Shown here: positions 9,210-47,700 of the stretch, piece after piece
How the letters are laid out: each line of letters opens with the position of its first letter
Position numbering within the stretch: the stretch's first letter is position 1
NCBI GenBank assembly: GCA_965219095.1
Contig: OZ244719.1
Location: forward strand, 459,071 to 523,070
Direction of reading: 5' to 3'
DNA: 64,000 nt
From: Bdellovibrionales bacterium
Lineage (GTDB): Bacteria > Bdellovibrionota > Bdellovibrionia > Bdellovibrionales > UBA1609
Notes under the pieces: model-generated
Databases searched by the model: none
Seen by the model: only the letters and a program-made list of their open reading frames with translations
What the model was told of the DNA's origin: nothing
Made by a program: the position numbers and the translations under genes

Positions 9210-9635
9210 CCGATTATAGGAATTCTTGCAGCAGTTGCCATTCCTGCATTCGATGGGTTTAGAAAAAAAGCACGAAGCGGTGAAGCTAAAACTAACTTAG
9301 GCGCTCTTTATACAGCAGAAAAAGCTTTTAGTTATGAGCACTCAGGCTACTGTGCTAGTCTTGGAACAATAGGTTTTGAAGAACCCCAAGGAACACGCCA
9401 CTACGCTATTGGCTTTCATTCTACAGGTAACAAAGCTAACTCAGCAGTTACAAATTGTACTGTTACAGGAGAAAATTATGACTCTAATGGTGGAGGTACC
9501 CCTATTACTGCTATAACGGGTACATCATGTAAAGTAGACCCTGTAGACAAATTTATAGCTTGTGCTGAAGGAGAAATGGCTTCAACAAATTCCAACTGGA
9601 AAATTGATGATGAGAAAGTAATAGGTCAGCTATAA
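9210..9635 (+). pseudogene. Pilin cassette A: 5'-truncated PilA-type type IV pilin, no start codon
   Basis: Open frame begins right after in-frame TAG 9207-9209 and encodes PIIGILAAVAIPAFDGFRKKARSGEAKTNLGALYTAEKAF... up to TAA 9633-9635. It lacks the leader, the G|FTLIE site and an ATG. Confidence 0.8.
9216..9310 (+). repeat. Conserved pilin 5' core (candidate recombination site), copy A
   Basis: ATAGGAATTCTTGCAGCAGTTGCCATTCCTGCATTCGATGGGTTTAGAAAAAAAGCACGAAGCGGTGAAGCTAAAACTAACTTAGG. Similarity to the other five copies starts exactly at ATAGG. Confidence 0.85.
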
Positions 9636-9656
9636 AATACTTAAACTCCACTTTAA

Positions 9657-9690
9657 AACCCCTCTCTTAAAGAGGGGTTTTTCTTTTTTC
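9657..9690 (+). terminator. Rho-independent terminator after cassette A
   Basis: Stem CCCCTCT / AGAGGGG with loop CTTAA, followed by a T-run. Confidence 0.65.
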
Positions 9691-9785
9691 CTCACAAAAT
9701 CCAAGCTAAAAAAACCCACTCATTTTGCTTTTTGAAGTGATTTTAGGAGTGATTTTTAACTCCTATTTTTCCAGCTTGCTAGTAT

Positions 9786-10988
9786 TCATTTCACTTCCAA
9801 AATTTCTTTGCCTTTAAGTTTAAGAGGTGAAGCTTTGAAGCTTGTTTCTGAAAGTTGGTTTAAACTTTCTAATTCATACATCTGAGCTGTTTTTTCCGCC
9901 ATATCCGAGTTAATGAGAGCTACCACTTTCGCATACCTTTGAGTCATAGCTTGATCCTTATGTCCAAGACTTGCTTGGACAGCTGAGAGGCTCTTTGTGG
10001 CCATCAAAGCCATTGTGGCATAAGTATGACGGCAAATGTGAGTTCCTCTCCAAGGAAGTCCGCAAGCTCTAAAAGACTTATCAAAAGCCCAGCGAATGGT
10101 CGTATAAGGCACAATTCCACCTTCCATTGAATGAAAGACTAAGGGGTTTTTGGAATGTTTCTTTATGGCTTTTAACATCTCTATAAGTTTATCAGGAAGA
10201 GTAAGCACTCTAACCGAGGTCTTTGTCTTTGTTGATTCCCTAATCTGAGGAACATCTAAAGCCCAATCAGCTGTTCGAACCACTCTTGCAAACTTGTTTC
10301 TAAAATCAACTTCTTTCCACATAAGTCCACACGCTTCACTTACTCTCGCTCCTGTTAAAATCATAAACTGGGCTAAGTGGTAGTAAACAGGATTAGAGAT
10401 CTTTTCAAGCTCAGAAAGCCACTTTCTAATCTCTTCAGGTTTAGCAAAGTAATCAGGCCTTTTGATTTTTGAAGGCCTCTGATGTTGATAGCACCTGTTT
10501 CTATGTCCTTGGACAATGGGAAAGGTAAAGCTAGGATCAATGTTGTTCCTCCACCAATGAAGAACTGAGCCTAAACGTCTTAACTCCATTTTAAAAGAGT
10601 GACGTTGATTTTTGCACTTTTGCTTCTTAAAAAGCCATTCAATCCAATGATCTATACTGATGTGATGTAAGTTTGACATTCTAACTTTTGCTAAAGGACT
10701 GTTAAGTAAGAATTTTTGGCATATGTTTTGAATTTTCTTTTGACTGCTAGCTCTTAAAGAAACAACATACTCTTTAAGATATCTTTTTACACAATCTTCA
10801 AAGAAAATCTCCTCTCTTTCTTGTGGAAGAAAGTTAGTTCCATGAAAAAATCGTTGCTTTTGTTTTTCTTCCCATAGAATAGCTTCCGTCTTTGTTGGAA
10901 AAGACTTGGATTTGACACGAACTCCTCTAACATACACTTGAGCATAATAGACAGTTTTATTTTTTCCTTTTCTTTTTGTTATCGACAT
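9786..10988 (-). CDS. Tyrosine recombinase/integrase (module 1)
   Basis: GARVSEACGL (Arg), WRGTHICRHTYAT (HxxR) and TQRYAK (Tyr). Start chosen at MSITKRK behind a GGAG; the ORF track allows 11012. Confidence 0.9.
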   Translation of the reverse strand: MSITKRKGKNKTVYYAQVYVRGVRVKSKSFPTKTEAILWEEKQKQRFFHGTNFLPQEREEIFFEDCVKRYLKEYVVSLRASSQKKIQNICQKFLLNSPLAKVRMSNLHHISIDHWIEWLFKKQKCKNQRHSFKMELRRLGSVLHWWRNNIDPSFTFPIVQGHRNRCYQHQRPSKIKRPDYFAKPEEIRKWLSELEKISNPVYYHLAQFMILTGARVSEACGLMWKEVDFRNKFARVVRTADWALDVPQIRESTKTKTSVRVLTLPDKLIEMLKAIKKHSKNPLVFHSMEGGIVPYTTIRWAFDKSFRACGLPWRGTHICRHTYATMALMATKSLSAVQASLGHKDQAMTQRYAKVVALINSDMAEKTAQMYELESLNQLSETSFKASPLKLKGKEILEVK

Positions 10989-11236
10989 GATTTCTCCTTT
11001 TGTTGAAGCCATTTCTCTAACTTATCATTCGGGAAATAGACGTTTCGGCCTATTTTCAAGAAAGGGATTTTTCTCATAGACATCCAATTACGGATGGTCT
11101 TAGGAGAAATTTCCAAAAACTCCGAAAGCTCTCTAAGGTTTATTAAATTGTCAAAGAACAGGCCCTTTTTTTGAGGGCGAATAGTGTTCTCTAAGCTACT
11201 ATTTTTTTTGATTGGTTTCAATTCTTTTTTATCCAT
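10979..11236 (-). CDS. Excisionase-type HTH DNA-binding protein (module 1)
   Basis: MDKKELKPIKK...LRELSEFLEISPKTIRNWMSMRKIPFLKIGRNVYF is a MerR/excisionase-like HTH. It overlaps the integrase start. Confidence 0.7.
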   Translation of the reverse strand: MDKKELKPIKKNSSLENTIRPQKKGLFFDNLINLRELSEFLEISPKTIRNWMSMRKIPFLKIGRNVYFPNDKLEKWLQQKEKSCR

Positions 11237-11559
11237 TTTTATTTCTCCTTTTAAAATATGGCGAAGAAGCTTAAAAAGCTCCCTCATTTGGTTTCTTCTA
11301 AGAACTCTGACTTTTCCTCACTGAATATGGTGAATTTACGCACTCAAAAAAGTGTTGTAAATTTTACTTTTCTTGCTTTGCATTATGTAACTCCTTTCCT
11401 TTTCGATTTGTTATTTGTTTTTTGACCTTTTTTTTACTCCTTTCTGAGCCATTAAAAAAACTAAAGCTAAACTCAAAAAAACAAAAATTTTTTAACCTGA
11501 TAGAGAAAATTTTTAATTTAAAAGTTCTAAAAATTTTCTCTATTTTTTCCTCCTCCCAC

Positions 11560-11722
11560 ACCCCCCTTTCCTCTTCCCACATCTATACACCCAACTCTGT
11601 GGTACCGTGACCACCCTCTCCCATACTAAAAAAAGTATGAGCGGGAGAGGGTGGTCACGGTGAAAACCGAAGGTTTTAGCAGAGTTGGGTGTATAAAGAC
11701 AAAGGGAAAAGGAAAGGGGGGG
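11560..11722. repeat. Nested long palindrome (module 1 copy)
   Basis: Outer arms TATACACCCAACTCTG / CAGAGTTGGGTGTATA enclose arms CCGTGACCACCCTCTCCC / GGGAGAGGGTGGTCACGG. Inverted copy of 21367-21529. Confidence 0.8.
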
Positions 11723-11787
11723 CATGCAAGACATGTTTTCAGCACTATAAGAAAATTCCAGAATTTTTTTAAAACTACTCATAAAGC

Positions 11788-12057
11788 TCACTCCTTTAAG
11801 TTAAAAATTTGAAACAAATCTTGTGAAGTTTTGATCTTATCAATGAGTACAGCCTGACCTACTTTTAAGTTCTTAAAAACATCAGGTTCGCTCTTCATTT
11901 TTTTGGTCTCCAAAAGATTCCCTAAGCCTGTTTTTATAGCACTCCCTTGAAGAATTTGGCTTTGAGCTTTTAGGCTTACAAGGTCTTGAGATTCTTCTTC
12001 TATATTCATAAGAAGCCTTAAATTCTTTTTTTGTTTTTTGTACTGTTTAAATTTCAT
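11788..12057 (-). pseudogene. Remnant of T4CP (TraD/VirD4-like) gene, internally deleted
   Basis: DLVSLKAQSQIL and KMKSEPDVFKNLKVGQAVLIDKIKTSQDLFQIFNLKE match the middle and C-terminus of the intact 531-aa protein at 37447-39042. No ATPase motifs are left. Confidence 0.6.
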
Positions 12058-12307
12058 GTCTATATGATCTTGATTTGAAGGTGTTTTGCGTTTTTGAGTT
12101 CAAAAAATGTTCATCAGTGATAAGAGAAATGGATTTTTGAACAAAGTCTTTTGGGTTTATTTTCTTAGCATAAGAGCTTTGATGAGCTTTTTTTAAAAGA
12201 TCTTTTAGTTTTAAAAAAGTACGTTTTTCAAGAATAAGACGTGCTACTTTCTTCTTAACTTTTATGCCTTTTCTTTTTGTGTCTTTATTTAATTTATTTC
12301 TTTTCAC
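12047..12307 (-). CDS. Basic hypothetical protein (possibly a gene remnant)
   Basis: ORF only. Confidence 0.2.
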   Translation of the reverse strand: MKRNKLNKDTKRKGIKVKKKVARLILEKRTFLKLKDLLKKAHQSSYAKKINPKDFVQKSISLITDEHFLNSKTQNTFKSRSYRHEI

Positions 12308-13736
12308 AAATAAACCTTTCTTTTTTATTCTTTTAATTTCTAACTTAAGTGATAGTTTTTTATTTTTTTTTTAACCCTTTAGCTTAAGAGTTTTTAAAAA
12401 CCCTGAAATAGGGGTCAGGCAGGTTTTTTAAATTTGCAAAAGATAGCTAAAAAATAAATAATTTCAATAAGTTATAACGCTTAAAAATATTTTTTCACTG
12501 TGGAGTTCTCATCATCAATTCATCACTTGTTTTTACTCCCTTTTTTGTTTTTTAAAAGAGTCTTTTTCCTTTTTTTAAAAACTACAATCTCTCTTCTCTA
12601 AAATGGGCTAAGCTCATTAAATTTTTATCCATGAAATCCTCAAACAGGCTATAAAAATCTTAGAAGGGCTATTAAAAAAAAAGACTTTTTTCTTCATCCA
12701 TTAAGCTATTTCTTCTTCTTTTTTTAAAAAAAATGTATAAAACAGCTAAATTTCAGGTTTTGAAAGTAGCTTTTTAAAGCTCTTTGAAGACGATTTTTTG
12801 ACCTGTAGCTACATAGGATTTGAACCCTGTAAAAACTCTTTTTTATCTTTTAGAGATATAACATTTTCTGTCTATGGCCTCCTTTTCTTTTATGAAGCGG
12901 TTTTTTTAACTTCAAGGGTTTTGGCATGGATATTCTTTTTTTATTTCTTCGAACAAATAGAGCTGATCTTGACCGGACATGGAAAATTTCCCCCTCACTA
13001 TAGGGGAGGTGCTAACCCCCATGGGGGTTAAATTCCTTCTAAGTGATTGAATTTCTTGGTTTTTTTGTTTTTTAGCTTCTGAACTGGAAATGTTTAATTT
13101 TTTAGAAATCTTTCGTTCTGTCAAGCCTTCATAGAGACCATTTGAATCACACTTTTTTTTTACTTGAAAGTAACTGAGAGTAGATTTTTTTAAGAAGCTG
13201 ACTTAAAAAACTCATCTTTTAAAGCTGCTTTTGGATTTTCTTTTTGGCACTTCTTAAACCTCACATCGATACAATCCTGATTAGAAAGTGTTTCATCTCT
13301 TAAGCTCAAATAGGTGATCCTTTGGTATAGGAGAAAGGGCTTTTTTGAAAATATCTTTGGCTTTGATTTTTCTACTATAAGGGATTTTATGGGATTTTAC
13401 TAAAAGCTCTTTTAATTTAAAAAAGCTCCATTTAACTTCTCAAATTAGAGCCCCCTCTTTACGATCGGTCAGAAAGCTTATGGAGGCTTTAGTACAAGGT
13501 AAGCTAGAGGGTGAGAGTCAATTGATTTAATGTGCCTAACTTTTAGCCTAAGAAAGAAAATAAAAGTAGCTAAGAAGATAGGAAGTAACAACTTAAAATA
13601 TGGAAGAAGATAGAGTTTTTACTTAGCGATCGGAAAAAGACAGTAGAAGTTAGAAGCAAAAAACTTTCCAACAATTTGTTAACTTAAGCCTTTTGGAGAT
13701 ATCTTCCGTAACCTTATGCTATAAAAGAATGTCGAA

Positions 13737-14426
13737 TTATTTTTTGGAATTGGTATTACTAAAGTTTTTTGGTTTAAAGTGTTTGGCATTAATAATACTT
13801 GCACTACTTCCTAAAGCTTGAATCACAAAAAGACCTTCTTTCTCAGCCTTTCTAGCTGAACCTTGATTGGCCTTAAGATAAGCTACAGCACCATAAATTA
13901 TTTTATCTTTATACAAAGGAAGCATTTGTTTAAAGTTTTTTAATTTGTTTATAAAATGAGTCAAATCTTTTAGCCATAAGGTGGTCTTGACTTCTGTCAC
14001 AACCACTTCACTGCCATTAACTACAATAATGTCAAATTCAAAAGGCTCATCATTCCATACCCCGGAAGACTCTTGAGAAATACTCTGCACTTCAATGTTT
14101 CTTTCTTGAAGAAGTTTAACTAAATCACCTTTTACCAGAGCCTCCATAAGCTTTCCCCATTGACCTATGAAAAGTTCGTCTAACTTTGCCATACGTTTAT
14201 CAGACTTTTTAAACTGACGATCGGTCTCAAGTTTTGACTCTTTTAACAAACGCTCTGTTTCTTTGTGGGCTTTTGCGGTCTCTTGTTGAGCTTTAGAGGT
14301 TTCTTTGAGTTGGCGGTCAGTCTCTTTTTGAGCTTTTGCCAGCTCTTTAATTCCCTTAAAAGCTCCTTTAATAGATTCCTGAAGAGCTTTGGGAATCTGG
14401 TTGTTTTTTGTTACTTTTATAGCCAT
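13737..14426 (-). CDS. Coiled-coil protein with C-terminal PD-(D/E)XK (DUF3782-like) nuclease fold, paralogue 1
   Basis: KAQ(K/Q)ETDRQLKE repeats followed by GQWGKLMEALV...FEFDIIVVNGSEVVVTEVKTTL (D...E-x-K). Start taken at MAIKVTK. Confidence 0.6.
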   Translation of the reverse strand: MAIKVTKNNQIPKALQESIKGAFKGIKELAKAQKETDRQLKETSKAQQETAKAHKETERLLKESKLETDRQFKKSDKRMAKLDELFIGQWGKLMEALVKGDLVKLLQERNIEVQSISQESSGVWNDEPFEFDIIVVNGSEVVVTEVKTTLWLKDLTHFINKLKNFKQMLPLYKDKIIYGAVAYLKANQGSARKAEKEGLFVIQALGSSASIINAKHFKPKNFSNTNSKK

Positions 14427-14785
14427 ATTATTTATAGTAGTATAAAAAAACTTTCTTTTCAAGTGGTTTTAAAAAAAAAATTCTTTTAAATAGCCTCACT
14501 GCGACATCTCTCTCTAACCTACTGTAAAAACAAGAAAATAAGAAAGTGCCAGATAAAAAAGTGCCAGAAAGATGCCGCTAGAGATAATACAACAATTAAA
14601 TCCGCTTTCAAAAGTAATACAAAAGCTAAGCTCTTATAAAACTACAAGTAACTTATCACACACTTAGTTTTTTTAGAGTGAGTTCAGAGTAAAAAATTAA
14701 GGAACCTTAGAGAACTTTCAGGAAATTTTAAGATAGATAGTGACGGCTAAGTTGTTAATTTTATTATTTCCTTTTAAATTTTTTA

Positions 14786-15271
14786 ATGATTCTAAGAACT
14801 TACAAAAGTTCACAGACCATTTTTATAGGAATTCTTGCAGCATTTGCCATTCCTGCATTCGATGGGTTTAGAAAAAAAGCACGAAGCAGTGAAGCTAAAA
14901 CCAATTTAGGGGCTCTTTTTACTGCACAGAAAGCTTTTTTCTATGAACACTCAACTTATTGTGCTCATCTAGCTGATGTAGGTTTTTCTGTAACCGGAGC
15001 AGACACATATTACACCATTGGTTTTGGTGCGAACTCTGGTGGTAGTAATAGTGGTTGTACCGCAGGTACTGCACCTGACTGGAAATCAGATGGCAGTAAA
15101 GCAACTGCACAAGCTCCTGAAGCAGCTTGTGATGCTGACACAACAGATTTTACTGCTGGTGCAGTCGGTCCAAAGGATGGTACTGACCTTATAGACGTAG
15201 ATAGTAACTATCGTATGGACCAAACAAAGAAGCTTAACTCCAATAGTATTTTCGACAAAGCTGGTTGTTAA
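14786..15271 (+). CDS. Pilin cassette B: PilA-type pilin lacking the leader and processing site
   Basis: MILRTYKSSQTIF|IGILAAFAIPAFDGFRKKARSSEAKTNLGALFTAQKAFFYE... The fortuitous ATG lies upstream of the core (core starts 14825). No G|FTLIE. Confidence 0.7.
   Translation: MILRTYKSSQTIFIGILAAFAIPAFDGFRKKARSSEAKTNLGALFTAQKAFFYEHSTYCAHLADVGFSVTGADTYYTIGFGANSGGSNSGCTAGTAPDWKSDGSKATAQAPEAACDADTTDFTAGAVGPKDGTDLIDVDSNYRMDQTKKLNSNSIFDKAGC
14825..14920 (+). repeat. Conserved pilin 5' core, copy B
   Basis: Same core sequence, with one G->T change (GCAGCATTTGCC). Confidence 0.85.
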
Positions 15272-15309: not shown

Positions 15310-15336
15310 TCAAACCCCTCTCTTAAAGAGGGGTTT
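15310..15336. terminator. Bidirectional hairpin terminator between convergent cassettes B and C
   Basis: CAAACCCCTCT cttaa AGAGGGGTTTG, with A/T runs on both sides. Confidence 0.7.
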
Positions 15337-15358
15337 GAAATGAAGTTTAGATATTTTT

Positions 15359-15847
15359 TTATTGACTCGCAATTTTTTTGTTTTGATCAATTTGCCAGTT
15401 GGAATTTGTTGAAGCCGTTTCTCCTTCAGCACAAGCTATGAACTTCTCAGGAGTTGTTGGAGTTGCTTCTTCTGTTAAGCAAGCAGCATCCAGATCCGAT
15501 GCTGATTTTTTATTAGCAGTAGTAGCAGTAGAATCATAAGCTAGTGTTCCTGAGGAGGGACAAGCAGCAGAAGCAGCACTAGTTGTACCTGCAGCCTTAA
15601 ATCCAACAGCGTAGTGGCGTGTTCCATCAGGTTCATCAAAACCTACTGCTTTAAGATTAGAACAGAAGCCGTTTTGTTCATAGAAAAAAGCTTTCTGTGC
15701 AGTAAAAAGAGCCCCTAAGTTAGTTTTAGCTTCACCGCTTCGTGCTTTTTTTCTAAACCCATCGAATGCAGGAATGGCAACTGCTGCAAGAATTCCTATA
15801 AATTGATTTGTAAACTTTTGTAAGTTTGCAGAATCACTAAAAAACAA
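15359..15847 (-). CDS. Pilin cassette C: PilA-type pilin lacking the leader and processing site
   Basis: MFFSDSANLQKFTNQF|IGILAAVAIPAFDGFRKKARSGEAKTNLGALFTAQKAFFYE... The core starts at 15799 on the minus strand. Confidence 0.7.
   Translation of the reverse strand: MFFSDSANLQKFTNQFIGILAAVAIPAFDGFRKKARSGEAKTNLGALFTAQKAFFYEQNGFCSNLKAVGFDEPDGTRHYAVGFKAAGTTSAASAACPSSGTLAYDSTATTANKKSASDLDAACLTEEATPTTPEKFIACAEGETASTNSNWQIDQNKKIASQ
15704..15799 (-). repeat. Conserved pilin 5' core, copy C
   Basis: Reverse complement of the core sequence. Confidence 0.85.
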
Positions 15848-16178
15848 AAAGAAAATAATAAATTAACCTACCCATCTATTCCCGAATGTTAAGACTTTTC
15901 CCCTACATTGAACCTAGTTGATCACGACAAAACTCCGTACAAGAACGCATATGAGAATCACGATAGTTTTGATTAAAAACAAACTTTAATTTCTTTTGTA
16001 CTTACTTTTGAAAGCCAGGATTTAATTGTTGTATTATCTCTAGCGACATCTTTCTGGTACTTTCTTATTTTCCTGTTATATTACAGTAGGTTAGAGAGAG
16101 ATGTTGCAGTGAGGCTATTTGAAAGAAATTCTCTTAAAATCACTTGAAAAGAAAGTTTTTTTATATTATTATAACCGC

Positions 16179-16994
16179 ATGTCTTTAAAAAAAACCAATC
16201 ATTCAATTCCTAAAGCTGTATGGGCTTCGATTCAAGCTGTTGCTAAAGAAACTCAAGAACTGGCAAAGTCTCAAAAAGAGAATGCCAAAGCTCAAAAAGA
16301 GACTGACCGCCAACTCAAAGAATCTCAAAAAGAAATCGCTAAAGCTCAAAAAGAGAATGCCAAAGCTCAAAAAGAGACTGATCGCCAACTCAAAGAAACC
16401 TCTAAAGCTCAAAAAGAGACTGATCGCCAACTCAAAGAATCTCAAAAAGAAACCGCAAAAGCCCACAAAGAAACAGAGCGTTTGTTAAAAGACTCAAAAC
16501 TTGAGACCGATCGTCAGTTTATAAAGTCTGATAAACGTATAGCAAAGTTAGACGAACTTTTCACAGGTCAATGGGGAAAGCTTATGGAGGCTCTGGTAAA
16601 AGGTGATTTAGTTAAACTTCTTCAAGAAAGAAACATTGAAGTGCAGAGTATTTCTCGAGAGTCTTCCGGGATATGGAATGATGAGCCTTTTGAATTCGAC
16701 ATTATTGTAGTTAATGGCAGTGAAGTGGTTGTGACAGAAGTCAAGACTACCTTATGGCTAAAAGATTTAACTCATTTTATAAACAAATTAAAAAACTTTA
16801 AACAAATGCTTCCTTTGTATAAAGATAAAATAATTTATGGTGCTGTAGCTTATCTTAAGTTCAATCAAGGTTCAGCTAGAAAGGCTGAGAAAGAAGGTCT
16901 TTTTGTGATTCGAGCTTTAGGAAGTAGTGCAAGCATTATTAATGCCAAACACTTTAAACCAAAAGTTTTTAGTAATACCAATTCCAAAAAATAA
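16179..16994 (+). CDS. Coiled-coil protein with C-terminal PD-(D/E)XK (DUF3782-like) nuclease fold, paralogue 2
   Basis: Start taken at MSLKKTNHSIPKAVW. It has more KAQKETDRQLKES repeats than paralogue 1, and the C-terminal domain is nearly identical. Confidence 0.6.
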   Translation: MSLKKTNHSIPKAVWASIQAVAKETQELAKSQKENAKAQKETDRQLKESQKEIAKAQKENAKAQKETDRQLKETSKAQKETDRQLKESQKETAKAHKETERLLKDSKLETDRQFIKSDKRIAKLDELFTGQWGKLMEALVKGDLVKLLQERNIEVQSISRESSGIWNDEPFEFDIIVVNGSEVVVTEVKTTLWLKDLTHFINKLKNFKQMLPLYKDKIIYGAVAYLKFNQGSARKAEKEGLFVIRALGSSASIINAKHFKPKVFSNTNSKK

Positions 16995-18630: not shown

Positions 18631-18712
18631 TTCTTTAATAAGAAGACAGTTTTCAAATTCATAATATAAAGTAAAGACATTGATCTGTTTTCTTTAATTT
18701 CTCTAAAAAACC

Positions 18713-33740: not shown

Positions 33741-33742
33741 AT

Positions 33743-37446: not shown

Positions 37447-39042
37447 ATGATTTTCTTTTTAGGGGGAGTGATTGCACATAAAGAGATTAAAAAAGCTCCT
37501 TATGCTTCTAAAAGGCTTGCGAAAAACTATAAATTTATAATTTGTATTTTTATTGGCCTTGTCATTTTAGAGACTCTTTTTTATCTACTTGTTTTAGACC
37601 TCTTGTTTTTCTGGTTAGCACAGCTTTTTGTATTTTGGATCTTTCAGGCTTTTTTACTTTTTATAACTTGTAATTTTTGGCTTAAGGATGAGAACATAAA
37701 ATCCAAAAAACGCATTACAGTGGATCATTTGGAGGGAGAAGAAGTTGATTTCAAAACTTTTGAGAAGGCTCTTGAGTCTAAAGACTCAGCTCCTATAGGA
37801 GCCAATTTTGTCAAAAAAGAGCTTGTAAGTTTACCTGTCAGTTCTAGAACAGAGCATTTACTTGTTACAGGAGCGACAGGCACAGGAAAAACAACCTTGA
37901 TGATGAATTTACTGAGGCACAGTTTTTTGCATAAACACCCTCTTGTGATCCTTGATCCTAAGGGGGAAATAAAGGACATAGAGATGATAAAATTCCTTTT
38001 TTGTGAGTTAGGAAGAAAAGAGGAAGACTTTAAGCTTTTTTCTCTTGCACAGCCTGAAAAGAGCTTGTCCTACGATCCTTTGAAGTATGGAACAAGTGAA
38101 CAAGTGAGGTCGAAACTGATGCTTGGCCTTAGTTTTACTCATGATTATTATGCTTCACAAGCCAGTCAGTATCTTTCTATCTTGCTTTCTTGTTTTGAAG
38201 CTCTAAAAAAGAAAATGAATCTTAAAGAATTAAAACAAGCCCTCAACAACTCTCACAAAGAATTTATGGAGAAAAAAGAGCTGGAAGGGATGGAAGATGA
38301 TGTAGCTTCTTTATCTCAAATTAAAAAAGAAGACCTTGCAGGATTAAAAGCTCAGGTTGAGATTTTAAACTCTAGAGAGTTTTCTCATCTTCTTTCTTCT
38401 TCAAAGTGTCAAATTGATTTAGTTGAGATTTTGGAAAAAGGTCAGGTGGCTTATTTTCAACTGAACACAAACGGATATGGTGATTTTGCAAGACGTTTAG
38501 GCAAAATGATTGTGCAAGACTTGAAAGTTATAAGCAGTCAAATTCATGCAGGACAAATAGCACCTAAGTTTAACTTTGCAGGGATATTTATTGACGAATT
38601 TGGCTCTTTTGCAACAAGAGATTTTAGCGACCTTCTTAAAATGATCAGAAGCTCTAACATAGGGGTTCATCTTTTTTGTCAAGGCTTGGCTGATTTAAAA
38701 GCTGTATCTTCTGAGTTTTCGGATCAGATTTTAGGTAACACTGCTTATAAGCTGATCTTCCGTCAAGATGTCCCTCAAGACTGTGAAACATGGTCTTCTG
38801 TTTGTGGAACTATAGAAGATAAAGCTATGACCTTTCAAGTGTCATCACAAGAGATGTTAAGCGAGTTTGAAAAAACAGGCTTAGGTTCACTTTTTAACAC
38901 CAAAAAGATGAAAGTGGATTTTGATGTTTTTAAGTCTTTAAAAAGAGGTCAAGCTCTTCTTATTGATAAACTTCAAAACAAGCAAATTTTACTTCAAGTT
39001 TACAATGCTAAAGAAAAAAAGAAGAAAGGCTTGGAGAAATGA
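37447..39042 (+). CDS. Type IV coupling protein-like ATPase (TraD/VirD4/TrwB family), the only intact copy
   Basis: N-terminal TM helices, Walker A VTGATGTGKT and Walker B-like FIDEFGSFAT. 531 aa. Confidence 0.75.
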   Translation: MIFFLGGVIAHKEIKKAPYASKRLAKNYKFIICIFIGLVILETLFYLLVLDLLFFWLAQLFVFWIFQAFLLFITCNFWLKDENIKSKKRITVDHLEGEEVDFKTFEKALESKDSAPIGANFVKKELVSLPVSSRTEHLLVTGATGTGKTTLMMNLLRHSFLHKHPLVILDPKGEIKDIEMIKFLFCELGRKEEDFKLFSLAQPEKSLSYDPLKYGTSEQVRSKLMLGLSFTHDYYASQASQYLSILLSCFEALKKKMNLKELKQALNNSHKEFMEKKELEGMEDDVASLSQIKKEDLAGLKAQVEILNSREFSHLLSSSKCQIDLVEILEKGQVAYFQLNTNGYGDFARRLGKMIVQDLKVISSQIHAGQIAPKFNFAGIFIDEFGSFATRDFSDLLKMIRSSNIGVHLFCQGLADLKAVSSEFSDQILGNTAYKLIFRQDVPQDCETWSSVCGTIEDKAMTFQVSSQEMLSEFEKTGLGSLFNTKKMKVDFDVFKSLKRGQALLIDKLQNKQILLQVYNAKEKKKKGLEK

Positions 39043-39669: not shown

Positions 39670-39734
39670 AGGCTTAGAATACCAAATGAGGGAGCTTTAA
39701 GCTCCCTCGTTATATTTTGAAAGGAGAAATAAAA

Positions 39735-39995
39735 ATGAATAAAAAAGAATTGAAACCAATCAAGAAAAGTAGTAGTTTAGAGAACACTATTCGCCCTCAA
39801 AAAAAGGGCCTGTTCTTTGACAATTTAATAACTATTGAGGAGCTTTCAGAAAATTTAGGTTTATCTAAGAAGACTTTACAAAATTGGGTTTCTTTAAGGA
39901 AAATCCCTTATGTAAAAATAGGCCGAAAGGTTTATTTTAGGTCTTCTCGCTTACAGCAGTGGATTGAACGAAAGGAGTTCAAATCATGTCTGTAA
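39735..39995 (+). CDS. Excisionase-type HTH DNA-binding protein (module 3)
   Basis: MNKKELKPIKK...IEELSENLGLSKKTLQNWVSLRKIPYVKIGRKVYF. Confidence 0.7.
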   Translation: MNKKELKPIKKSSSLENTIRPQKKGLFFDNLITIEELSENLGLSKKTLQNWVSLRKIPYVKIGRKVYFRSSRLQQWIERKEFKSCL

Positions 39996-41188
39996 CTAAA
40001 ATTAAAAGAAAAAAAAAGAACGTCTATCAAGCTCAAGTGTATGTCAGAGGAGTGAGGCTTTCGAGTAAAGTTTTTGAAAACAAAACTCAAGCTTACATTT
40101 GGCATGATAGAGAAAAAGATCGCCTTGAAAAAGGTGAAACTATAGAAGAAAAAGAACTTAAAGAATTGCTTTTTTGCGATTGTGTAGAAAAGTACATCAA
40201 AGAGTATCTGCCTAAACTGAGAGCTTCCAGCCAGAGAAAAATCTTATTGAATCTGAAAAATCTTTCAGTTAACAGCCCCTTAAATAAAGTCAAGATGTTA
40301 GACTTAAAGGCAAAGGAGATAAGCCTTTGGATTTCTTGGTTTCAAAAGAAAACTAAGAAGTGTAGGCAAAGACAGAGTTTTAAAACAGAGTTTAGGCGAC
40401 TTGTAGCTGTTCTAAACTGGTGGAGAAATTATGTTGACCCAAATTTTGTTGTTCCTGTAGTGAAAATGCATAGAGATATTTGCTATGAGACAACTCAAAA
40501 ACTAAGACGACCTGACTACTTTGCTAGACCAGAAGAAATACAGCTTTGGCTTCAAAAGCTTCAGAAAATATCTAACCCTGTTTATTATAGACTGGCAAAG
40601 TTTATGATTTTAACAGGAGCTAGAGTGAGTGAAGCTTGTGGGCTTTTATGGAAAGAAGTTGTCTTTGAAGAAAAATTTGTACGTGTGGTAAGGACAGCTG
40701 ATTGGGGAGGTAACAAAATAACTCTCTGTGAAGACACTAAAACGAAAGCATCTAACAGGCTTTTGGTTCTTCCAGAGAGACTTGTGGAGTTGTTAAGGGT
40801 TATGAAAAGTGAGTCTCCCGAAAATCCCTTAGTCTTTCATTCAAGAGAAGGTGAAATGGTGTCTTATACAAGCATTCGCTGGGCTTTTGATAAGTCCTTT
40901 AAGGCCTGCAATCTTCCTTGGAGAGGGACTCATATTTGCCGTCATACTTATGCCACAATGGCACTTATGGCGACAAAAAGTCTTTCCGCTGTGCAAGCAA
41001 GTCTTGGGCATACAGATCAAGCTATGACTCAAAGGTATGCTAAAGCGGTAGCTTTAATAAATTCTGATATGGCAGAAAGAACGGCTAGCATGTACGAATC
41101 GAAATCACTTACAAAATCACTTACGCACCCTCAAAAGACCCTAAATGAGTCCTCATTAAGGATAAGGGAAAGTGATTCTAGCAGTTGA
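39986..41188 (+). CDS. Tyrosine recombinase/integrase (module 3)
   Basis: GARVSEACGL, WRGTHICRHTYAT and TQRYAK. More diverged in the N-terminal half than int1, int2 and int4. Confidence 0.9.
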   Translation: MSVTKIKRKKKNVYQAQVYVRGVRLSSKVFENKTQAYIWHDREKDRLEKGETIEEKELKELLFCDCVEKYIKEYLPKLRASSQRKILLNLKNLSVNSPLNKVKMLDLKAKEISLWISWFQKKTKKCRQRQSFKTEFRRLVAVLNWWRNYVDPNFVVPVVKMHRDICYETTQKLRRPDYFARPEEIQLWLQKLQKISNPVYYRLAKFMILTGARVSEACGLLWKEVVFEEKFVRVVRTADWGGNKITLCEDTKTKASNRLLVLPERLVELLRVMKSESPENPLVFHSREGEMVSYTSIRWAFDKSFKACNLPWRGTHICRHTYATMALMATKSLSAVQASLGHTDQAMTQRYAKAVALINSDMAERTASMYESKSLTKSLTHPQKTLNESSLRIRESDSSS

Positions 41189-41295: not shown

Positions 41296-41314
41296 AAAGT
41301 AGAGTTTAAGTATT

Positions 41315-41752
41315 TTATGGTAGTACACTCAAACTTTTCTCATGATTAATTTGCCAGTTGGAATTTGTCGAATCCCCGTTTCCTTCAGCACAAGCTATGA
41401 ATTCATCACCTGCAGAGTTTAGCACACAGGTTGCCCCTATAATCTTAGCAACTACCGTAGCGGCAGTTGATGGGTGACATTTATCCGTACAAGCAGTTTC
41501 TTTAAATCCAACAGCGTAGTGGCGTGTTCCAGAAGGTTCCTCAAATCCTATATTAGCTAGGACGTCTGAATATTTATCACCTTCATAAAGGTAGGCTTTT
41601 TCTGCTGTATAAAGAGCCCCTAAGTTAGTTTTAGCTTCACTACTTCGTGCTTTTTTTCTAAACCCATCGAATGCAGGAATGGCAACTGCTGCAAGAATTC
41701 CTATAAATTGATTTGTAAACTTTTGTAAGTTTGCAGAATCACTAAAAAACAA
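41315..41752 (-). CDS. Pilin cassette E: PilA-type pilin lacking the leader and processing site
   Basis: MFFSDSANLQKFTNQF|IGILAAVAIPAFDGFRKKARSSEAKTNLGALYTAEKAYLYE... The core starts at 41704 (minus). The upstream 48 nt are identical to cassette C. Confidence 0.7.
   Translation of the reverse strand: MFFSDSANLQKFTNQFIGILAAVAIPAFDGFRKKARSSEAKTNLGALYTAEKAYLYEGDKYSDVLANIGFEEPSGTRHYAVGFKETACTDKCHPSTAATVVAKIIGATCVLNSAGDEFIACAEGNGDSTNSNWQINHEKSLSVLP
41610..41704 (-). repeat. Conserved pilin 5' core, copy E
   Basis: Reverse complement of the core sequence. Confidence 0.85.
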
Positions 41753-42094
41753 AAAGAAAATAATAAATTAACCTACCCATCTATTCCCGAATGTTAAGAC
41801 TTTTCCCCTACATTGAACCTAGTTGATCACGACAAAATTCCGTACACGGACGCATATAAAAATCACGATAGTTCTAAAACAAACTTTAATTTCTTTTGTA
41901 CTTACTTTTGAAAGCCAGGATTTAATTGTTGTATTATCTCTAGCGACATCCTTTCTGGTGCTTTTTTATCTGGTACTTTCTTATTTTCCTGTTACGTTAC
42001 AGTAGGTTAGTGAGGGATATCGCAGTGAGGCCATTTGAAAGAAATTCTCTTAAAATCACTTGAAAAGAAAGTTTTTTTATATTATTATAATTGT

Positions 42095-42847
42095 ATGTCT
42101 TTAAAAAAACTCAATCATTCAATTCCTAAAGCTGTATGGGCTTCGATTCAAGCTGTTGCTAAAGAAACTCAAGAACTAGTAAAGTCTCAAAAAGAGAATG
42201 CCAAAGCTCAAAAAGAGACTGATCGCCAACTCAAAGAATCTCAAAAAGAAATCGCTAAAGCTCAAAAAGAGACTGATCGCCAACTCAAAGAATCTCAAAA
42301 AGAAATCGCTAAAGCTCAAAAAGAAATCGCTAAAGCTCAAAAAGAGACTGATCGCCAACTCAAAGAATCTCAAAAAGATACTAATCAACGTATAGCACAA
42401 CTCAACGAACTTTTCACAGGTCAATGGGGGAAGCTTATGGAAGCCTTTGTAAAAGGTGATTTAGTTAAACTTCTTCAAGAAAGGAACATCGATGTTAATG
42501 ATATATGCTCTAATAGAGAGAAGACCTTTGAAGGTCAAAAATATGAGTTTGATATCATAGCCATTAATGGAAAAGAAACAGTAGCTGTGGAAGTAAAGAC
42601 TACTTTACGGCTGAAAGACTTAACTTATTTTTTAAAAAAGTTAAAAACCTTTAAAAAGATGTTTCCTGAATATGAAGATAAGAAAATATACGGAGCTATG
42701 GCTTTTATAAAAGTGAATGAAGGAGCTGATAGGAGAGCTGAAAAAGATGGTTTATTTGTGATTCAAGCTGTAGGAGATAGTGGAAGCATTATTAATGCCA
42801 AACACTTTAAACCAAAGATCTTTTGTAATAACAATTCCAAAAAATAA
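42095..42847 (+). CDS. Coiled-coil protein with C-terminal PD-(D/E)XK (DUF3782-like) nuclease fold, paralogue 3
   Basis: KAQKETDRQLKESQKEIA repeats followed by YEFDIIAINGKETVAVEVKTTL. The C-terminal domain is more diverged than in paralogues 1 and 2. Confidence 0.6.
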   Translation: MSLKKLNHSIPKAVWASIQAVAKETQELVKSQKENAKAQKETDRQLKESQKEIAKAQKETDRQLKESQKEIAKAQKEIAKAQKETDRQLKESQKDTNQRIAQLNELFTGQWGKLMEAFVKGDLVKLLQERNIDVNDICSNREKTFEGQKYEFDIIAINGKETVAVEVKTTLRLKDLTYFLKKLKTFKKMFPEYEDKKIYGAMAFIKVNEGADRRAEKDGLFVIQAVGDSGSIINAKHFKPKIFCNNNSKK

Positions 42848-43878: not shown

Positions 43879-44088
43879 GAGAAGAAAAGGTGCGGAATGA
43901 AAAAATAAGAATCCTGAGGGTTCCTAGAAAGACCTTTTTTAAATTAAAAGAGCAGTTAGGTAATATAAAGTAAAGATATTGATCTGTTTTCTTTAAATTT
44001 CTCTAAAAACCAAGCTATTGTTTTCATATATGCACATTTTTAAGAATCTGTTTGAAAGAAATACACACTTGAATGCTGTTTGAATGTT

Positions 44089-44180
44089 GCAGATCTGTTA
44101 CAAATTTGCATATTTGTTACAAATGTAACAGATCTGTTACAAATGTATCGGATTCAGCAAATTTGTAACAAATATGCAAC
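44089..44180. repeat. GTTACAAAT iteron/palindrome array (module 4 copy)
   Basis: Same as 20331-20460 but one 41-bp unit shorter. Confidence 0.8.
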
Positions 44181-44283
44181 TTTTCAAAAAAAAACAAGAA
44201 AAACCTTTTTTTTCATTTAAAACTTTATTGTAGCAAAAGGTTTTATAAAAGAGTCCTTTTTATAAAACCAAAAAGAAAGGAGT

Positions 44284-45020
44284 ATGTATGAAGCAAAAAA
44301 CAAAAAAAGAGTTCTTATGAAGATAGAAGCACCTCAAAACCTTGTAAGCTTAAAAGCTCAAATCCAGACCCTTACTTCTCCAGAATTTAGAAACTCCTCT
44401 ATACATGAAGAAAAAGAAATCGATCTCCTGGATGTTATGAAAAAAAATCAAATAGCCTATTTCCAGTTGAATTTAAACAGCTATGGTTTTTTAGGTAAGA
44501 AAATCGGTAAAATTCTAGTTCAAGATCTAAAGGTTATAAGCTCTCAGATTCAATCAGGACAAGTGGATTTTAAGCCTTTACTTTTAGGGGTCTTGATTGA
44601 TGAATTTGGATCTTTTGCTACACCTGATTTTTCAGATTTTTTAAAGCAAGTAAGATCTGCTGGTACAGGAGTTCACTTATTTTGCCAAGGCTTAGCTGAT
44701 TTAAATGTTGTAAGTCAGAGTTTTAGCAATCAAGTGTTGGGAAGTGCGGCCACTAAAATCATACTTCGACAAGATGTGAAGAGGACTCTCGAAAAATGGG
44801 CTTTTACAGCTGTCACTAGGGGCACTGTAGGTAGGAGTTTTCAGGTCAGTGAACGCATTCTGGGGAACTTAAAAAAACAGGCTTAGGGAATCTTTTGGAG
44901 ACCAAAAAAATGAAGATCGAACATGATGTTTTTAAGAGCTTAAAAGTAGGTCAGGCTGTACTCATTGATAAGATCAAAACCTCACAAGATTTGTTTCAAA
45001 TTTTTAGCTTAAAGGAGTGA
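44284..45020 (+). pseudogene. Truncated/frameshifted T4CP gene (module 4, duplicate of 20565-21301)
   Basis: The 200-aa ORF is identical except for one residue (TVVTRG versus TAVTRG). Confidence 0.75.
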
Positions 45021-45085
45021 GCTTTATGAGTAGTTTTAAAAAAATTCTGGAATTTTCTTATAGTGCTAAAAACATGTCTTGCATG

Positions 45086-45248
45086 CACCCCCTTTCCTTT
45101 TCCCTTTGTCTTTATACACCCAACTCTGCTAAAACCTTCGGTTTTCACCGTGACCACCCTCTCCCGCTCATACTTTTTTTAGTATGGGAGAGGGTGGTCA
45201 CGGTACCACAGAGTTGGGTGTATAGATGTGGGAAGAGGAAAGGGGGGT
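45086..45248. repeat. Nested long palindrome (module 4 copy)
   Basis: Identical to 21367-21529. Confidence 0.8.
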
Positions 45249-45570
45249 GTGAGAGGAGGAAAAAATAGAGAAAATTTTTAGAACTTTTAAATTAAAAATT
45301 TTCTCTATCAGGTTAAAAAATTTTTGTTTTTTTAAGTTTAACTTGAGTTTTTTTAATGGCCGAGAAAGGAGTAAAAAAAAAGGTCAAAAAACAAATAACA
45401 AATCAATCATGAAAGGAGTAGCATAATGCAAAGCAAGAAAAGTAAAATTTACGACACTTTTTTGAGTGCGTAAATTCATCATATTCAGTGAGGAAAAGTC
45501 AGAGTTCTTAGAAGAAACCAAATGAGGAAGTTTTTTAAGCTTCTTCGCCATATTTTGAAAGGAGAAAAAA

Positions 45571-45828
45571 ATGGATAAAAAAGAATTGAAACCAATTAAA
45601 AAAGGTAGTAGTTTAGAGAACACTATTCGCCCTCAAAAAAAGGGCCTGTTCTTTGACAATTTAATAACCGTAGAGGAATTAGCCTTAGCGTTTGGGCTGT
45701 CTCCTAGAACGATTAAAAATTGGGTGAGTTTAAGACAAATCCCCTTTATTCAGTTCAGAAGAAGGACTTACTTTCTTAAAGACAGTATCCATAGATGGCT
45801 TCAACAAAAGGAGAAATCATGTCAATAA
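45571..45828 (+). CDS. Excisionase-type HTH DNA-binding protein (module 4)
   Basis: Identical to 21852-22109. Confidence 0.7.
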   Translation: MDKKELKPIKKGSSLENTIRPQKKGLFFDNLITVEELALAFGLSPRTIKNWVSLRQIPFIQFRRRTYFLKDSIHRWLQQKEKSCQ

Positions 45829-46994
45829 CCAAACGTAAAAGGAAAAATAAAATAACATATCAAGCAGAAATTTATGTAAGAGGAATTCGTCTGAAAGCAA
45901 AAAGCTTTCAAACAAAAACAGAAGCCTGTATATGGCACGATAAGGAAAAAAAACGTCTTCAAGAAGGAAGAGTTTCTCTTCAAGAAGAGTTAAGAGAACT
46001 TTTCTTTGAAGACTGTGTGAGAAGGTATCTTAAAGAGTATGTTCCTACTTTAAGAGATTCCAGTCAAAAGAAGATTCAACTTCTTTGCGAGAGGTTTTTT
46101 CTACAAAGTCCTTTAGCAAAAACAAAAATGTCAGATATAGACCATGTCAGTATTGACACTTGGATTGACTGGCTTTTTAGAAGCTTTAAAAACACTGTCA
46201 ACCGCCATTCTTTTAGAATAGAGTTAAGGCGTCTTGGCTCTGTTCTTCACTGGTGGAGAAACTACCTTGATCCAAGCTTTAGCTTTCCTATTGTTCGTGG
46301 TCATAGAAATCGGTGTTATGTGAAGAAGCGAGAATCTAAGGTGAAAAGGCCAGATTACTTTGCTAAACCTGAAGAGGTGAGGGCTTGGCTTAACGAACTT
46401 AAGAAGATTCAAAACCCTGTTTATTACCGTTTAGCTCAGTTTATGATTTTAACAGGAGCGAGAGTAAGTGAAGCTTGTGGACTTATGTGGAGTGAAATTG
46501 ATTTTAAGAATCGTTTTGCAAGAGTTGTTAGAACAGCTGACTGGTCTTCTGAAAAACCTCAAATTCTAGAAACCACAAAGACTAAGACTTCTGTAAGAGT
46601 TTTAACTCTTCCTGAAAAGCTCATAGAGCTTTTGTATGAAATGAAAGAGGAATCTAATAATCCTCTTGTGTTTTACTCTTCAGAAGGAAAAGTCGTTCCT
46701 TACACTACCATTCGTTGGGCCTTTGATAAGTCTTTTAAGACCTGCAATCTTCCTTGGAGAGGAACTCATATTTGTCGTCATACTTATGCCACAATGGCTT
46801 TAATGGCGACAAAAAGCCTCTCAGCTGTCCAAGCAAGTCTTGGGCATAAGGATCAAGCTATGACTCAAAGGTATGCAAAAGTGGTGGCTCTCATTAACTC
46901 GGATATGGCAGAAAAAACAGCTCAGATGTATGAAATGAACTCTTTAGGTTCATCTCCATCACGACAGATCACGACGTCTTTACAGACAAAATGA
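45819..46994 (+). CDS. Tyrosine recombinase/integrase (module 4)
   Basis: Protein identical to int2, with a few silent nucleotide differences. Confidence 0.9.
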   Translation: MSITKRKRKNKITYQAEIYVRGIRLKAKSFQTKTEACIWHDKEKKRLQEGRVSLQEELRELFFEDCVRRYLKEYVPTLRDSSQKKIQLLCERFFLQSPLAKTKMSDIDHVSIDTWIDWLFRSFKNTVNRHSFRIELRRLGSVLHWWRNYLDPSFSFPIVRGHRNRCYVKKRESKVKRPDYFAKPEEVRAWLNELKKIQNPVYYRLAQFMILTGARVSEACGLMWSEIDFKNRFARVVRTADWSSEKPQILETTKTKTSVRVLTLPEKLIELLYEMKEESNNPLVFYSSEGKVVPYTTIRWAFDKSFKTCNLPWRGTHICRHTYATMALMATKSLSAVQASLGHKDQAMTQRYAKVVALINSDMAEKTAQMYEMNSLGSSPSRQITTSLQTK

Positions 46995-47212
46995 ACTTTA
47001 GGATCAAAAGGATACTGGTAGTTGAATTTTAAAATTTTTTAAAATTTAAAAAAAAGAATTCTAGCAGGAACACTTGGAATGAAAAACTCACGACGGAAAT
47101 CACGACTTCTCACTAAAATAGCTAAGATATCACTCATAAAGTAGAGCGTGAAAGAAGTTCTAGCAGTGGAAAGTTTAAGAGTTTTGAAGTAAAAAAAGAC
47201 CTACTATAAATA

Positions 47213-47239
47213 AACCCCCCTTTTTCTAAAAAGGGGGTT
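47213..47239. terminator. Hairpin terminator between int4 and cassette F
   Basis: AACCCCCC tttttctaaaaa GGGGGTT. Confidence 0.6.
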
Positions 47240-47256
47240 CTAGAAAGGTTTTCAGA

Positions 47257-47700
47257 TTAAGTACAGTCAGCTCCTGCGCCATTTGATTTTAAAATTTTAA
47301 GATTATCCATCTGCCAATTTGTTCCAACACTATCAAGCTTATTGCTTGTGTGATTTCCAAAAGCTCCAGCTTTGAAGGTTGTAGTTGTGTGTTCACATGC
47401 AGGTCCAGGAGCCCTTTTAGTGCCGGTAGCATGAGTAGAGTCGTGTTTTGCAGCAGCAGCCGCTGTTGCTGGGCATGTTCCCACTACAGCACTCGCCTTA
47501 AATCCGATAGAAAAATATTGCGTTCCCTCGGGTTTTCCAAAACCTATCAAATCCAAGTTATTACAATAATCGCCTTGTTCATAAAAGTACGCTTTTTCTG
47601 CTGTATAAAGAGCCCCTAAGTTAGTTTTAGCTTCACCGTCTCGTGCTTTTTTTCTAAACCCATCGAATGCAGGAATGGCAACTGCTGCAAGAATTCCTAT
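47257..47700 (-). pseudogene. Pilin cassette F: 5'-truncated PilA-type pilin, no start codon
   Basis: The minus frame reads ...LF|IGILAAVAIPAFDGFRKKARDGEAKTNLGALYTAEKAYFYEQGDYCNNLDLIGFGKPEGTQYF... An in-frame TGA lies 8 codons upstream of the core and no ATG precedes it. Confidence 0.8.
47606..47700 (-). repeat. Conserved pilin 5' core, copy F
   Basis: Reverse complement of the core. The sequence beyond 47700 is an unrelated IS fragment. Confidence 0.85.

Follow-up and report, generated by a model that had tools for sequence, protein, structure and literature searches.

Many genomic islands and integrative and conjugative elements use tyrosine integrases to enter tRNA and tmRNA genes, and some form tandem arrays that leave several 3′ fragments of the target gene side by side; arrays of this kind were reportedly described by Williams in 2002/2003. 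A related arrangement occurs in a protein-coding gene of E. coli, where the prophages e14 and phage 21 sit in icd and carry a substitute for the icd 3′ end. Here we analyse a stretch of 64,000 nucleotides (nt) from a Bdellovibrionales bacterium (contig OZ244719.1, positions 459,071 to 523,070; hereafter “the window”, taken from a source contig of 717,612 nt) that holds six pilin gene fragments without leader, which we call cassettes c1 to c6. These cassettes are probably the attachment-site (att) ends of a family of integrative, conjugative or mobilisable islands that use codons 13 to about 50 of the pilin gene pilA as their att site, as judged from the layout of the DNA and from relatives in other samples.

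Pilin genes are known as substrates of recombination in several other settings. In the R64-type shufflon the tyrosine recombinase Rci acts on alternative 3′ segments of pilV, and in Moraxella the recombinase Piv inverts pilin DNA. Neisseria stores silent pilS copies that are used at pilE through RecA-dependent gene conversion, without integrases. In streptococci and Lactococcus, prophages insert into comYC, the gene for the major competence pseudopilin, and abolish its function (PMC4774983; reviewed in PMC12378983), the one documented example of a pilin-like gene that integrases enter repeatedly. We found no report in the literature of an integrase whose target is a gene for a major type IV pilin and which provides a replacement head domain.

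The six cassettes are c1 (9216–9635, + strand, 139 codons plus stop), c2 (14825–15271, +, 148 codons), c3 (15359–15799, −, 146 codons), c4 (23536–23964, −, 142 codons), c5 (41315–41704, −, 129 codons) and c6 (47257–47700, −, 147 codons), where c2 is the innermost of a left-hand array, and c3 and c6 are the innermost and outermost of a right-hand array. Each starts with a 41-nt core, ATAGGAATTCTTGCAGCA(G/T)TTGCCATTCCTGCATTCGATGG, present without mismatch at 9216(+), 14825(+), 15799(−), 23964(−), 41704(−) and 47700(−), so two copies lie on the forward and four on the reverse strand; none of 100 dinucleotide-preserving shuffles gave a match. A preliminary description of this DNA, made from the letters alone, had reported that the cassettes begin to resemble one another at a single nucleotide, and a six-way alignment with 300-nt flanks bears this out, with the similarity of all copies starting at TT|ATAGGAATTC (the bar marks the boundary). 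Upstream of this point likeness is found in subsets only (c1 with c4; c3 with c5 and partly with c2), and c6 is unique. Read from the core, all six frames are open over 129–148 codons and start with IGILAA(V/F)AIPAFDGFRKKAR. It was also right that three copies lack an ATG and have an in-frame stop just upstream: the stop lies 3 codons before the core in c1 and c4, and 9 codons before it in c6, with no start codon between the c6 stop and its core. The ATG located 13 codons upstream of the c2 core and the TTG located 16 codons upstream in c3 and c5 are fortuitous, and the core itself contains no in-frame ATG, GTG or TTG. The claim that every copy has a hairpin terminator of its own holds for c1 (hairpin at 9655–9681, +) and fails for c2 and c3, which form a 975-bp tail-to-tail unit between inverted cores and share a single bidirectional hairpin (CAAACCCCTCTCTTAAAGAGGGGTTTG, approximately 15311–15337). 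At least two further cassettes, P0002 and P0004, exist on the source contig outside the window; they are known only as called proteins, with N-termini of the A-arm type described below. The exact core pattern had no match in a genome collection of 185,579 species, and a cassette protein alignment matched nothing in the JGI metagenome contigs or in viral contigs.

The position of the boundary within the pilin was determined through two alignments. A profile of the cassettes aligns from residue 13 of mature PilA of M. xanthus (8TJ2, E=2.7e-19), and full-length c3 shares 55% identity with an intact pilin encoded on L001 (ENA ERZ25070844, ctg7083_1x_c), a metagenomic and oddly repeated contig in which a similar core stands in the same codon context. 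The intact form is GFSLIELMVVVAI|IGVLAAVAIPQFDGFRKKAR, and across the cassette boundary this closest intact pilin reads ...KRGFSLIELMVVVAI|IGVLAAVAIPQFDGFRKKAR. Both comparisons let the cassettes start at mature I13, with the leader and 12 mature residues absent; the leader had been correctly reported as missing, while the estimate of about 18 lost mature residues was too high. The class III signal peptide, the G|F cleavage site, E5 and helix residues 1–12 are therefore lacking in all cassettes, and the rest of alpha-1 and the PilA-homologous globular domain are present. The core corresponds to, and is identical with, codons 13 to about 50 of a pilA of the Myxococcus type. In searches with the Pfam families Pilin_PilA or Pilin_GH, c3 scores above the curated cut-off and c2 below it. 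The L001 contig (1–15856) carries its pilin in a 5.28-kb unit repeated in three head-to-tail copies, each composed of a DDE_3 transposase, a 2OG-Fe(II) oxygenase, two unknown genes and the pilin; coverage is 1x, and the middle pilin copy has 145 amino acids (aa) versus 178 aa. These repeats could be a small circular element read repeatedly, or an assembly or read artefact.

What the preliminary description did not mention, and what we regard as the key to the interpretation, are integrase (int) and xis genes beside four of the cassettes. Four integrase open reading frames of 399–408 aa (Pfam Phage_integrase, PF00589, E about 1e-20) each lie 150–270 nt past the 3′ end of c1, c4, c5 or c6 and are convergent with the cassette; the innermost c2 and c3 have no adjoining integrase or Xis-like gene. 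The catalytic residues R, HxxR, H and Y (TGAR, HICRH, LGH..RY) are intact in every one of them, and each integrase is preceded by an HTH_17 frame of the Xis/AlpA type, whose role as putative excisionase is taken from family membership. BLAST comparison between the units gave a repeated order of arm, core, cassette with terminator, convergent int, xis, a gene or gene fragment for a TraG/TraD-type coupling protein, cargo, a repeat-rich protein and the next arm. Cores in direct orientation thus bound four islands of 5.6, 8.2, 17.7 and 6.0 kb, which we call E1 (9216–14824, +), E4 (23964–15800, −), E5 (41704–23965, −) and E6 (47700–41705, −). The left stack consists of E1, preceded by an element that reaches beyond the window start, and the right stack of E6, E5 and E4, which run from 47700 down to 15800.

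In E1 the integrase gene (9786–11012, −, E=1.6e-20) is convergent with c1, and its start is overlapped by the xis gene (10979–11287, −, PF12728, E=9e-11). The other three integrases, convergent with c4, c5 and c6 respectively, lie at 22076–23275(+) in E4, 39986–41188(+) in E5 and 45795–46994(+) in E6, the E4 and E6 proteins being identical. Their Xis-like frames are found at 21840–22109(+) in E4 (64% identical to the E1 Xis by tblastn), 39690–39995(+) in E5 (71% identical) and 45559–45828(+) in E6. Conjugation is represented by C-terminal TraG/TraD fragments, remnants of a coupling protein, in E4 (20565–21167, +, PF12696) and E6 (44284–44886, +), and by a coupling-protein-like ATPase with TrwB/TraG-D_C/HerA/FtsK domains in E5 (37447–39042, +); from this gene content, the elements of the window look mobilisable or decayed rather than self-transmissible. 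A search for tRNA genes in the window found none, and for this reason we rejected the possibility that the islands of the window occupy tRNA sites.

The arms that precede the cores fall into two types. The B-type arm upstream of c1 (9050–9215, +) is an element-side flank and a putative attP P-arm; it is about 90% identical to the B-type arm at 24130–23965, which precedes c4 on the reverse strand at the right end of E5. A-type arms lie upstream of c2 at the right end of E1 (14605–14824, +), upstream of c3 at the right end of E4 (15800–16020, −) and upstream of c5 at the right end of E6 (41705–41925, −). Common to A and B types and to the other samples are the motifs GTGAT..GTGATCAA (~130 nt upstream), TTTTTTAnTGATTC (~45 nt upstream) and AAACTTACAAAAGTTT, which are plausible candidates for arm-type Int binding sites. 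In the window GTGATCAA occurs at 9081, 15918–15925, 24092–24099 and 41823–41830, and 4/4 sites fall 126–135 nt upstream of a core on the cassette strand; their number is not significant, as 12 of 100 shuffles reach four matches, and the placement alone is suggestive. A version of the arm motif with a fixed 7-nt spacing had no matches.

A profile search with the four integrases revealed a tight clade of relatives (59–74% identity) on four ENA contigs, L007 to L010, from three other samples. The pilin-linked relatives always show xis, int and then a convergent Pilin_PilA gene or its start; the L009 contig ends just past int, before the pilin 5′ end is reached. L007 and L010 hold two cassettes each in direct orientation, so the core forms direct repeats as in the window, although the core DNA of the cassettes in these contigs differs from that of the window. 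All five readable cassette starts in L007, L008 and L010 are leaderless and begin I|IG(I/V)LAAVAIP, with stops or unrelated sequence just upstream. Since VirB4/TraG-type ATPases, TrbI, a coupling protein of the TrwB type and a relaxase are among the cargo that they carry, these relatives are conjugative or mobilisable islands. The Gly-Ile ... Ile-Pro helix codons within the core (9218–9244 and the other five copies of the window) form an inverted repeat, GGAAT-N16-ATTCC; the diverged cores of L007 and L008 contain it too, and in L001 and L010 it is imperfect. This repeat might help a recombinase to recognise this stretch.

Two of the contigs, L007 and L008, come from one sample and locate the point of exchange. 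Between L007 14206–16514 and L008 9609–11915 there is 97.8% identity over 2313 bp spanning xis, int, cassette and core, which breaks off 5 nt beyond the first base of the core (AAATT|ATCGG...); to the left of this point the two flanks are unrelated. The cassette thus moves together with its integrase and is exchanged at the 5′ edge of the core, a recombination breakpoint. A crossover at the 3′ hairpin of the cassette was considered and rejected, given that the identity crosses the cassette and ends at the core 5′ edge, and that relatives at tRNA sites have the same geometry. These latter relatives encode integrases of 46–47% identity in Bdellovibrionales metagenome-assembled genomes (L002 and L003), where the same xis-int pair is accompanied by a convergent gene for tRNA-Ile or tRNA-Ala at 134 and 101 nt, respectively, beyond the end of the int reading frame (stop included), in the place that the cassette takes in the window. 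In L002, a tRNA-like fragment just upstream of tRNA-Ile (7510–7565, −), for which ARAGORN makes no call, may stem from an earlier integration, as a degenerate or displaced copy of a tRNA.

Frames homologous to HTH_17 stand beside int in L002, L003 and L007–L012 as well. The integrases of L011 and L012 (49–50% identity) adjoin neither a pilin nor a tRNA gene, and the pilin-linked clade is therefore discrete; that of L004 (42% identity) lies at a contig end. Integrase fragments belonging to the same 90% cluster were found on a companion contig of 2,397,094 nt. An integrase alignment gave no match among viral contigs and a single match, of 26% identity, among metagenome contigs, and a plasmid collection yielded no DNA match, no integrase match better than about 25% identity and no counterpart of the system.

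Although three copies of the window cannot be translated alone, the cassettes are kept as coding sequence. Their C-terminal domains, which had been described as unrelated, are divergent but homologous, sharing 50–59% aa identity with c3 overall and conserving Cys and GF positions, and the end ...ACAEG..STNSNWQI.. is common to c1, c3, c4 and c5. All 11 cassette frames, six from the window and five from the other samples, are open, and the window DNA has 33% GC. Among the window cassettes the ratio of nonsynonymous to synonymous substitution (dN/dS) is 0.3–0.9. Nei-Gojobori dS in the same set is 0.04–0.32 in core codons 1–38 versus 0.5–2.3 in the remainder; since the core value is 5–20 times lower, the core is kept or homogenised as DNA, beyond the constraint on the protein, as expected of an att identity block. 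One could also think of the cassettes as stand-alone truncated pilins expressed by the islands, for example as inhibitors of host pilus assembly, or as ordinary pseudogenes truncated at similar points. Gene callers do annotate c2, c3, c5, P0002 and P0004 as open reading frames with short N-terminal extensions, and cassettes have terminators of their own. However, c1, c4 and c6 offer no start codon from the upstream stop through the core, the reading frame of the A-arm extension is not preserved in L007b, and independent truncations would not yield the same boundary codon in 11 copies from four samples together with so low a core dS, which makes this explanation highly improbable.

Under the reading that we favour, Int would recombine the core of a circular island (arm, core, cassette, int, rest) with the corresponding stretch of a pilA that is resident in the host. 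This would place the pilin globular domain of the island in frame behind the host promoter, the leader and the first 12 mature codons, and would displace the former 3′ part of pilA to the far end of the island, leaderless and silent. As every cassette carries the core, later islands could insert into any copy, which would build stacks separated by silent cassettes. The two stacks of the window converge on c2 and c3, a tail-to-tail pair with a common terminator that seems to represent the 3′ ends which the locus had originally. The base at which all copies begin to agree would be the left border of the att identity block, in other words the crossover region. The island anatomy and the integrase family are solid; the fusion to a 5′ half was not observed and is the step that we infer. 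The preliminary description had offered silent donor cassettes or displaced 3′ gene halves, and the second option comes essentially right, in the form of 3′ portions joined to a site-specific recombination core. Its further suggestion of a dedicated system that varies the exposed half of the pilin is not shown by this anatomy, which comprises int and xis at 4/6 cassettes, island cargo, the module in other samples and relatives at tRNA sites; pilin variation would be a consequence of island integration and not the task of a dedicated locus.

This arrangement has much in common with islands at tRNA and tmRNA sites, which also consist of the 3′ part of the target gene, a convergent int, xis, cargo and a repeat of the target 3′ end, a geometry that L002 and L003 confirm. 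There, too, the identity block reaches from the crossover as far as the 3′ end of the target, and islands stack at one site. The difference is that here a protein-coding gene is targeted, at a point close to its 5′ end, and that the replacement amounts to about 90% of the mature protein and is divergent, so that the product would be changed and not merely restored. The icd prophages likewise have an integrase that targets coding sequence, supply an alternative 3′ end and leave a displaced 3′ pseudogene fragment in place. In icd, however, the exchanged part is the last ~50 codons with few aa changes, whereas here it is about 130–150 codons of an exposed domain, strongly divergent and present in many stacked islands. 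The comYC prophages resemble the window in that an integrase clade repeatedly targets the orthologous position of a type IV pilin-like gene across species, but in comYC the gene is disrupted and no replacement half has been described, while a complete in-frame replacement is carried here.

Several observations weigh against this reading, above all the missing 5′ half. As the preliminary description had noted, no complete pilin gene is visible in the window: strict and loose patterns as well as permissive tblastn and blastn searches with the intact relative found no prepilin leader or G|F(S/T)LIE motif in any frame. None of the 11 cassette starts (six in the window, five in L007, L008 and L010) is joined to a pilin 5′ half, as an attL would be, and a query containing the core returned no full-length pilin among the matching proteins of the 717,612-nt and 2,397,094-nt contigs. 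Nothing longer than 105 aa came back from a chimeric query of leader plus core, which could therefore not have revealed a full-length pilin of this genome. The outer flank of c6 is a second difficulty. To the right of this cassette follow 2.4 kb of truncated insertion sequence (IS) copies and then genes for BamB, an amino-acid dehydrogenase, YceD, SHMT, RpiB and FabF, ordinary chromosomal genes that identify c6 as the outer end of the right-hand stack; with housekeeping genes 2.4 kb away, the 5′ half should be found on this outermost copy. In the place expected for an arm or a 5′ half, and precisely from the core edge on, c6 instead adjoins a C-terminal fragment of an IS4-type transposase (47703–47918, +, 72 codons; a weak Pfam match below the curated cut-off). 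The precision of the c6/IS4 junction suggests an integrase-mediated event with a secondary site, or a right end that never carried the 5′ half. With no 5′ half in the window or at c6, and no full-length pilin among the matched proteins of the two large contigs, the evidence leans towards a genome without a core-bearing pilin 5′ half, which the preliminary description had named as speaking against its own reading. Two opposed stacks moreover need two convergent targets or an inverted silent copy at the original locus, because integration gives direct repeats only. Finally, E4 and E6 form a mosaic: their 3.1-kb int-xis-TraG blocks (20247–23479 versus 44005–47195) are 99.6–100% identical, yet the variable regions of their cassettes are unrelated and the distal halves are only 78–93% alike, which calls for recent gene conversion or homologous exchange between islands as an extra step. 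Such exchange would also seem to reshuffle modules and cassette variable regions, as in this pair. An IS66-family insertion is present in E4 (18710–20246, +) and not in its twin E6. We rejected an inversion mediated by IS66 as the source of the two orientations, as E4 is collinear with E6 apart from this simple insertion.

The same absence of a 5′ half is what would be expected if the array were a fossil or targeted itself, that is, if the pilin-derived att site was inherited from an ancestor that targeted pilA, the islands now inserted only into each other's cores, and no functional pilin arose from the cassettes. The lack of a 5′ half at all 11 starts, among them the outer end of the right stack with its truncated IS copies, the lack of a full-length core-bearing pilin among the matched proteins of the two large contigs and the reduction of the E4 and E6 conjugation genes to fragments all fit this picture. 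On the other hand, all 11 frames are open in AT-rich DNA, where stops arise quickly, dN/dS in the window is below 1, and the Cys and GF positions are conserved across strongly diverged copies and samples. Open frames and dN/dS below 1 are hard to explain without recurrent selection on the encoded protein, and we consider a fossil array unlikely.

The orientation of the cores raises another possibility, namely a shufflon on a large scale, with a single pilin expression site of promoter, leader, codons 1–12 and core outside the window and integrases that invert the DNA between it and the opposed cores, so that cassettes are expressed in turn. In this version, c2/c3 would originally have been a two-cassette invertible unit with one expression end, islands would have entered both of its cores, and the integrases would now recombine the expression site with any internal junction of opposite orientation, inverting tens of kilobases and thereby switching the displayed pilin head. 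Cores do occur in both orientations, the 975-bp unit has the layout of a two-cassette invertible pilin segment, the cassettes are all open and diverse next to a nearly identical core, and the four integrases have intact catalytic residues. A c6 without 5′ half fits a locus with a single expression end, and since the internal junctions of arm, core, cassette and int are attP-like, recombination between inverted attB and attP sites would be mechanistically natural. Against this, each recombinase has its own Xis and the body of a mobile island with conjugation remnants, the module changes context in other samples, and the arrays of L007 and L010 are direct repeats only. Cassettes lie up to 18 kb apart and are not clustered at a constant gene part, no expression site was found in the window or among the proteins matching the core-containing query, and the more distant integrase relatives are ordinary tRNA-site integrases. 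The shufflon therefore has a small chance of being correct in our estimate.

In R64 and Moraxella, as proposed here, site-specific recombination within the pilin coding region joins a constant 5′ part to alternative 3′ parts, and c2/c3 resemble an invertible unit. Those systems, however, use one recombinase on short repeats in a compact cluster directly after the constant part, without mobility genes, whereas here each island has int plus xis, cassettes lie 0.1–18 kb apart over 38 kb together with cargo, and neighbouring cores are mostly direct. No constant 5′ pilin part of the R64 type adjoins a cluster in the window. Moraxella Piv belongs to the DEDD/IS110-like recombinases, unlike the PF00589 tyrosine recombinases beside the cassettes, and the other transposases of the window (IS66, ISL3, IS4, IS630-like and DDE_5) are ordinary IS copies. 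With Neisseria the window shares promoterless, 5′-truncated silent pilin copies in the chromosome, but here the boundary falls at one fixed codon and is linked to tyrosine recombinases; the fixed boundary and the adjoining integrases argue for site-specific exchange over conversion of the Neisseria type.

Beyond the genes of integration and conjugation, the islands carry defence genes and IS elements, and their cargo includes a ubiquitin-like E1/E2/JAB operon, a pentapeptide-repeat protein and copies of IS66 and ISL3. In E5 (31927–35837, +) the pentapeptide-repeat gene is followed by an operon for Multiubiquitin, a prokaryotic E2, an E1(ThiF)-JAB protein and DUF6527, constituting a ubiquitin-like conjugation system for which the PADLOC E1-E2 matches are weak. 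A four-gene operon of the same island (27927–30853, −; 443, 138, 195 and 203 aa) has no Pfam match and one weak PADLOC match to PDC-M19A. The element left of c1 carries a pair of genes at 370–7088(−), one for an HKD(PLD)-Snf2 helicase of 1091 aa and the other for a Type IIG restriction-modification enzyme of 1146 aa, which PADLOC assigns to C3a139 ‘HKD+Snf2’ (E=4e-55) and to REase_MTase_IIG (E=1e-93), respectively. They are followed at 7599–8621 by an SDH-type ClpP-like protease, a homologue of which is found in L007 (1178–2017). The last gene before the A-type arm is in three islands a repeat-containing paralogue: 13737–14462(−) in E1, with KETDRQLKE repeats and no Pfam match, 16119–16994(+) in E4, and 42035–42847(+) in E6, the only one with a weak match to Hjc/AHJR-like nucleases. 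The number of coding repeats of 21, 54 and 75 nt (KETDRQLKE/AKAQKE) varies in these paralogues, and L007 has 54-nt tandem repeats (9791–10239) at the equivalent place. In the IS pile at 47701–50000, part of the IS4-like tail (47703–47918) recurs at 26248–26339, positions 48272–48793 are the first 522 nt of an IS66-family element, 99% identical to 18712–19233 and inverted, and a 5′-truncated ISL3 lies at about 48951–49981.

For those who prospect for integrases, the locus offers a well-defined natural att site in a conserved coding sequence. Even if the pilin halves were never expressed, it would still be a clean and previously undescribed case of islands stacking at a protein-coding att site, and if the shufflon version were true, mobile islands would both deliver and shuffle surface-pilin variants in a Bdellovibrio-like bacterium. 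If the fusion step holds, an integrase clade has exchanged tRNA genes for a new target, codon 13 of the gene for the major type IV pilin, and its islands, beyond repairing that target, would substitute a version of their own for the entire exposed domain of the pilus subunit. The uptake of an island would then instantly alter a major surface structure that serves as phage receptor and adhesin and that, in Bdellovibrio-like predators, has been reported to be necessary for prey invasion. Old pilin versions would be archived as silent cassettes, so that such archives are explained without a dedicated variation system, and island traffic, defence-gene cargo and surface variation would be linked in one mechanism.

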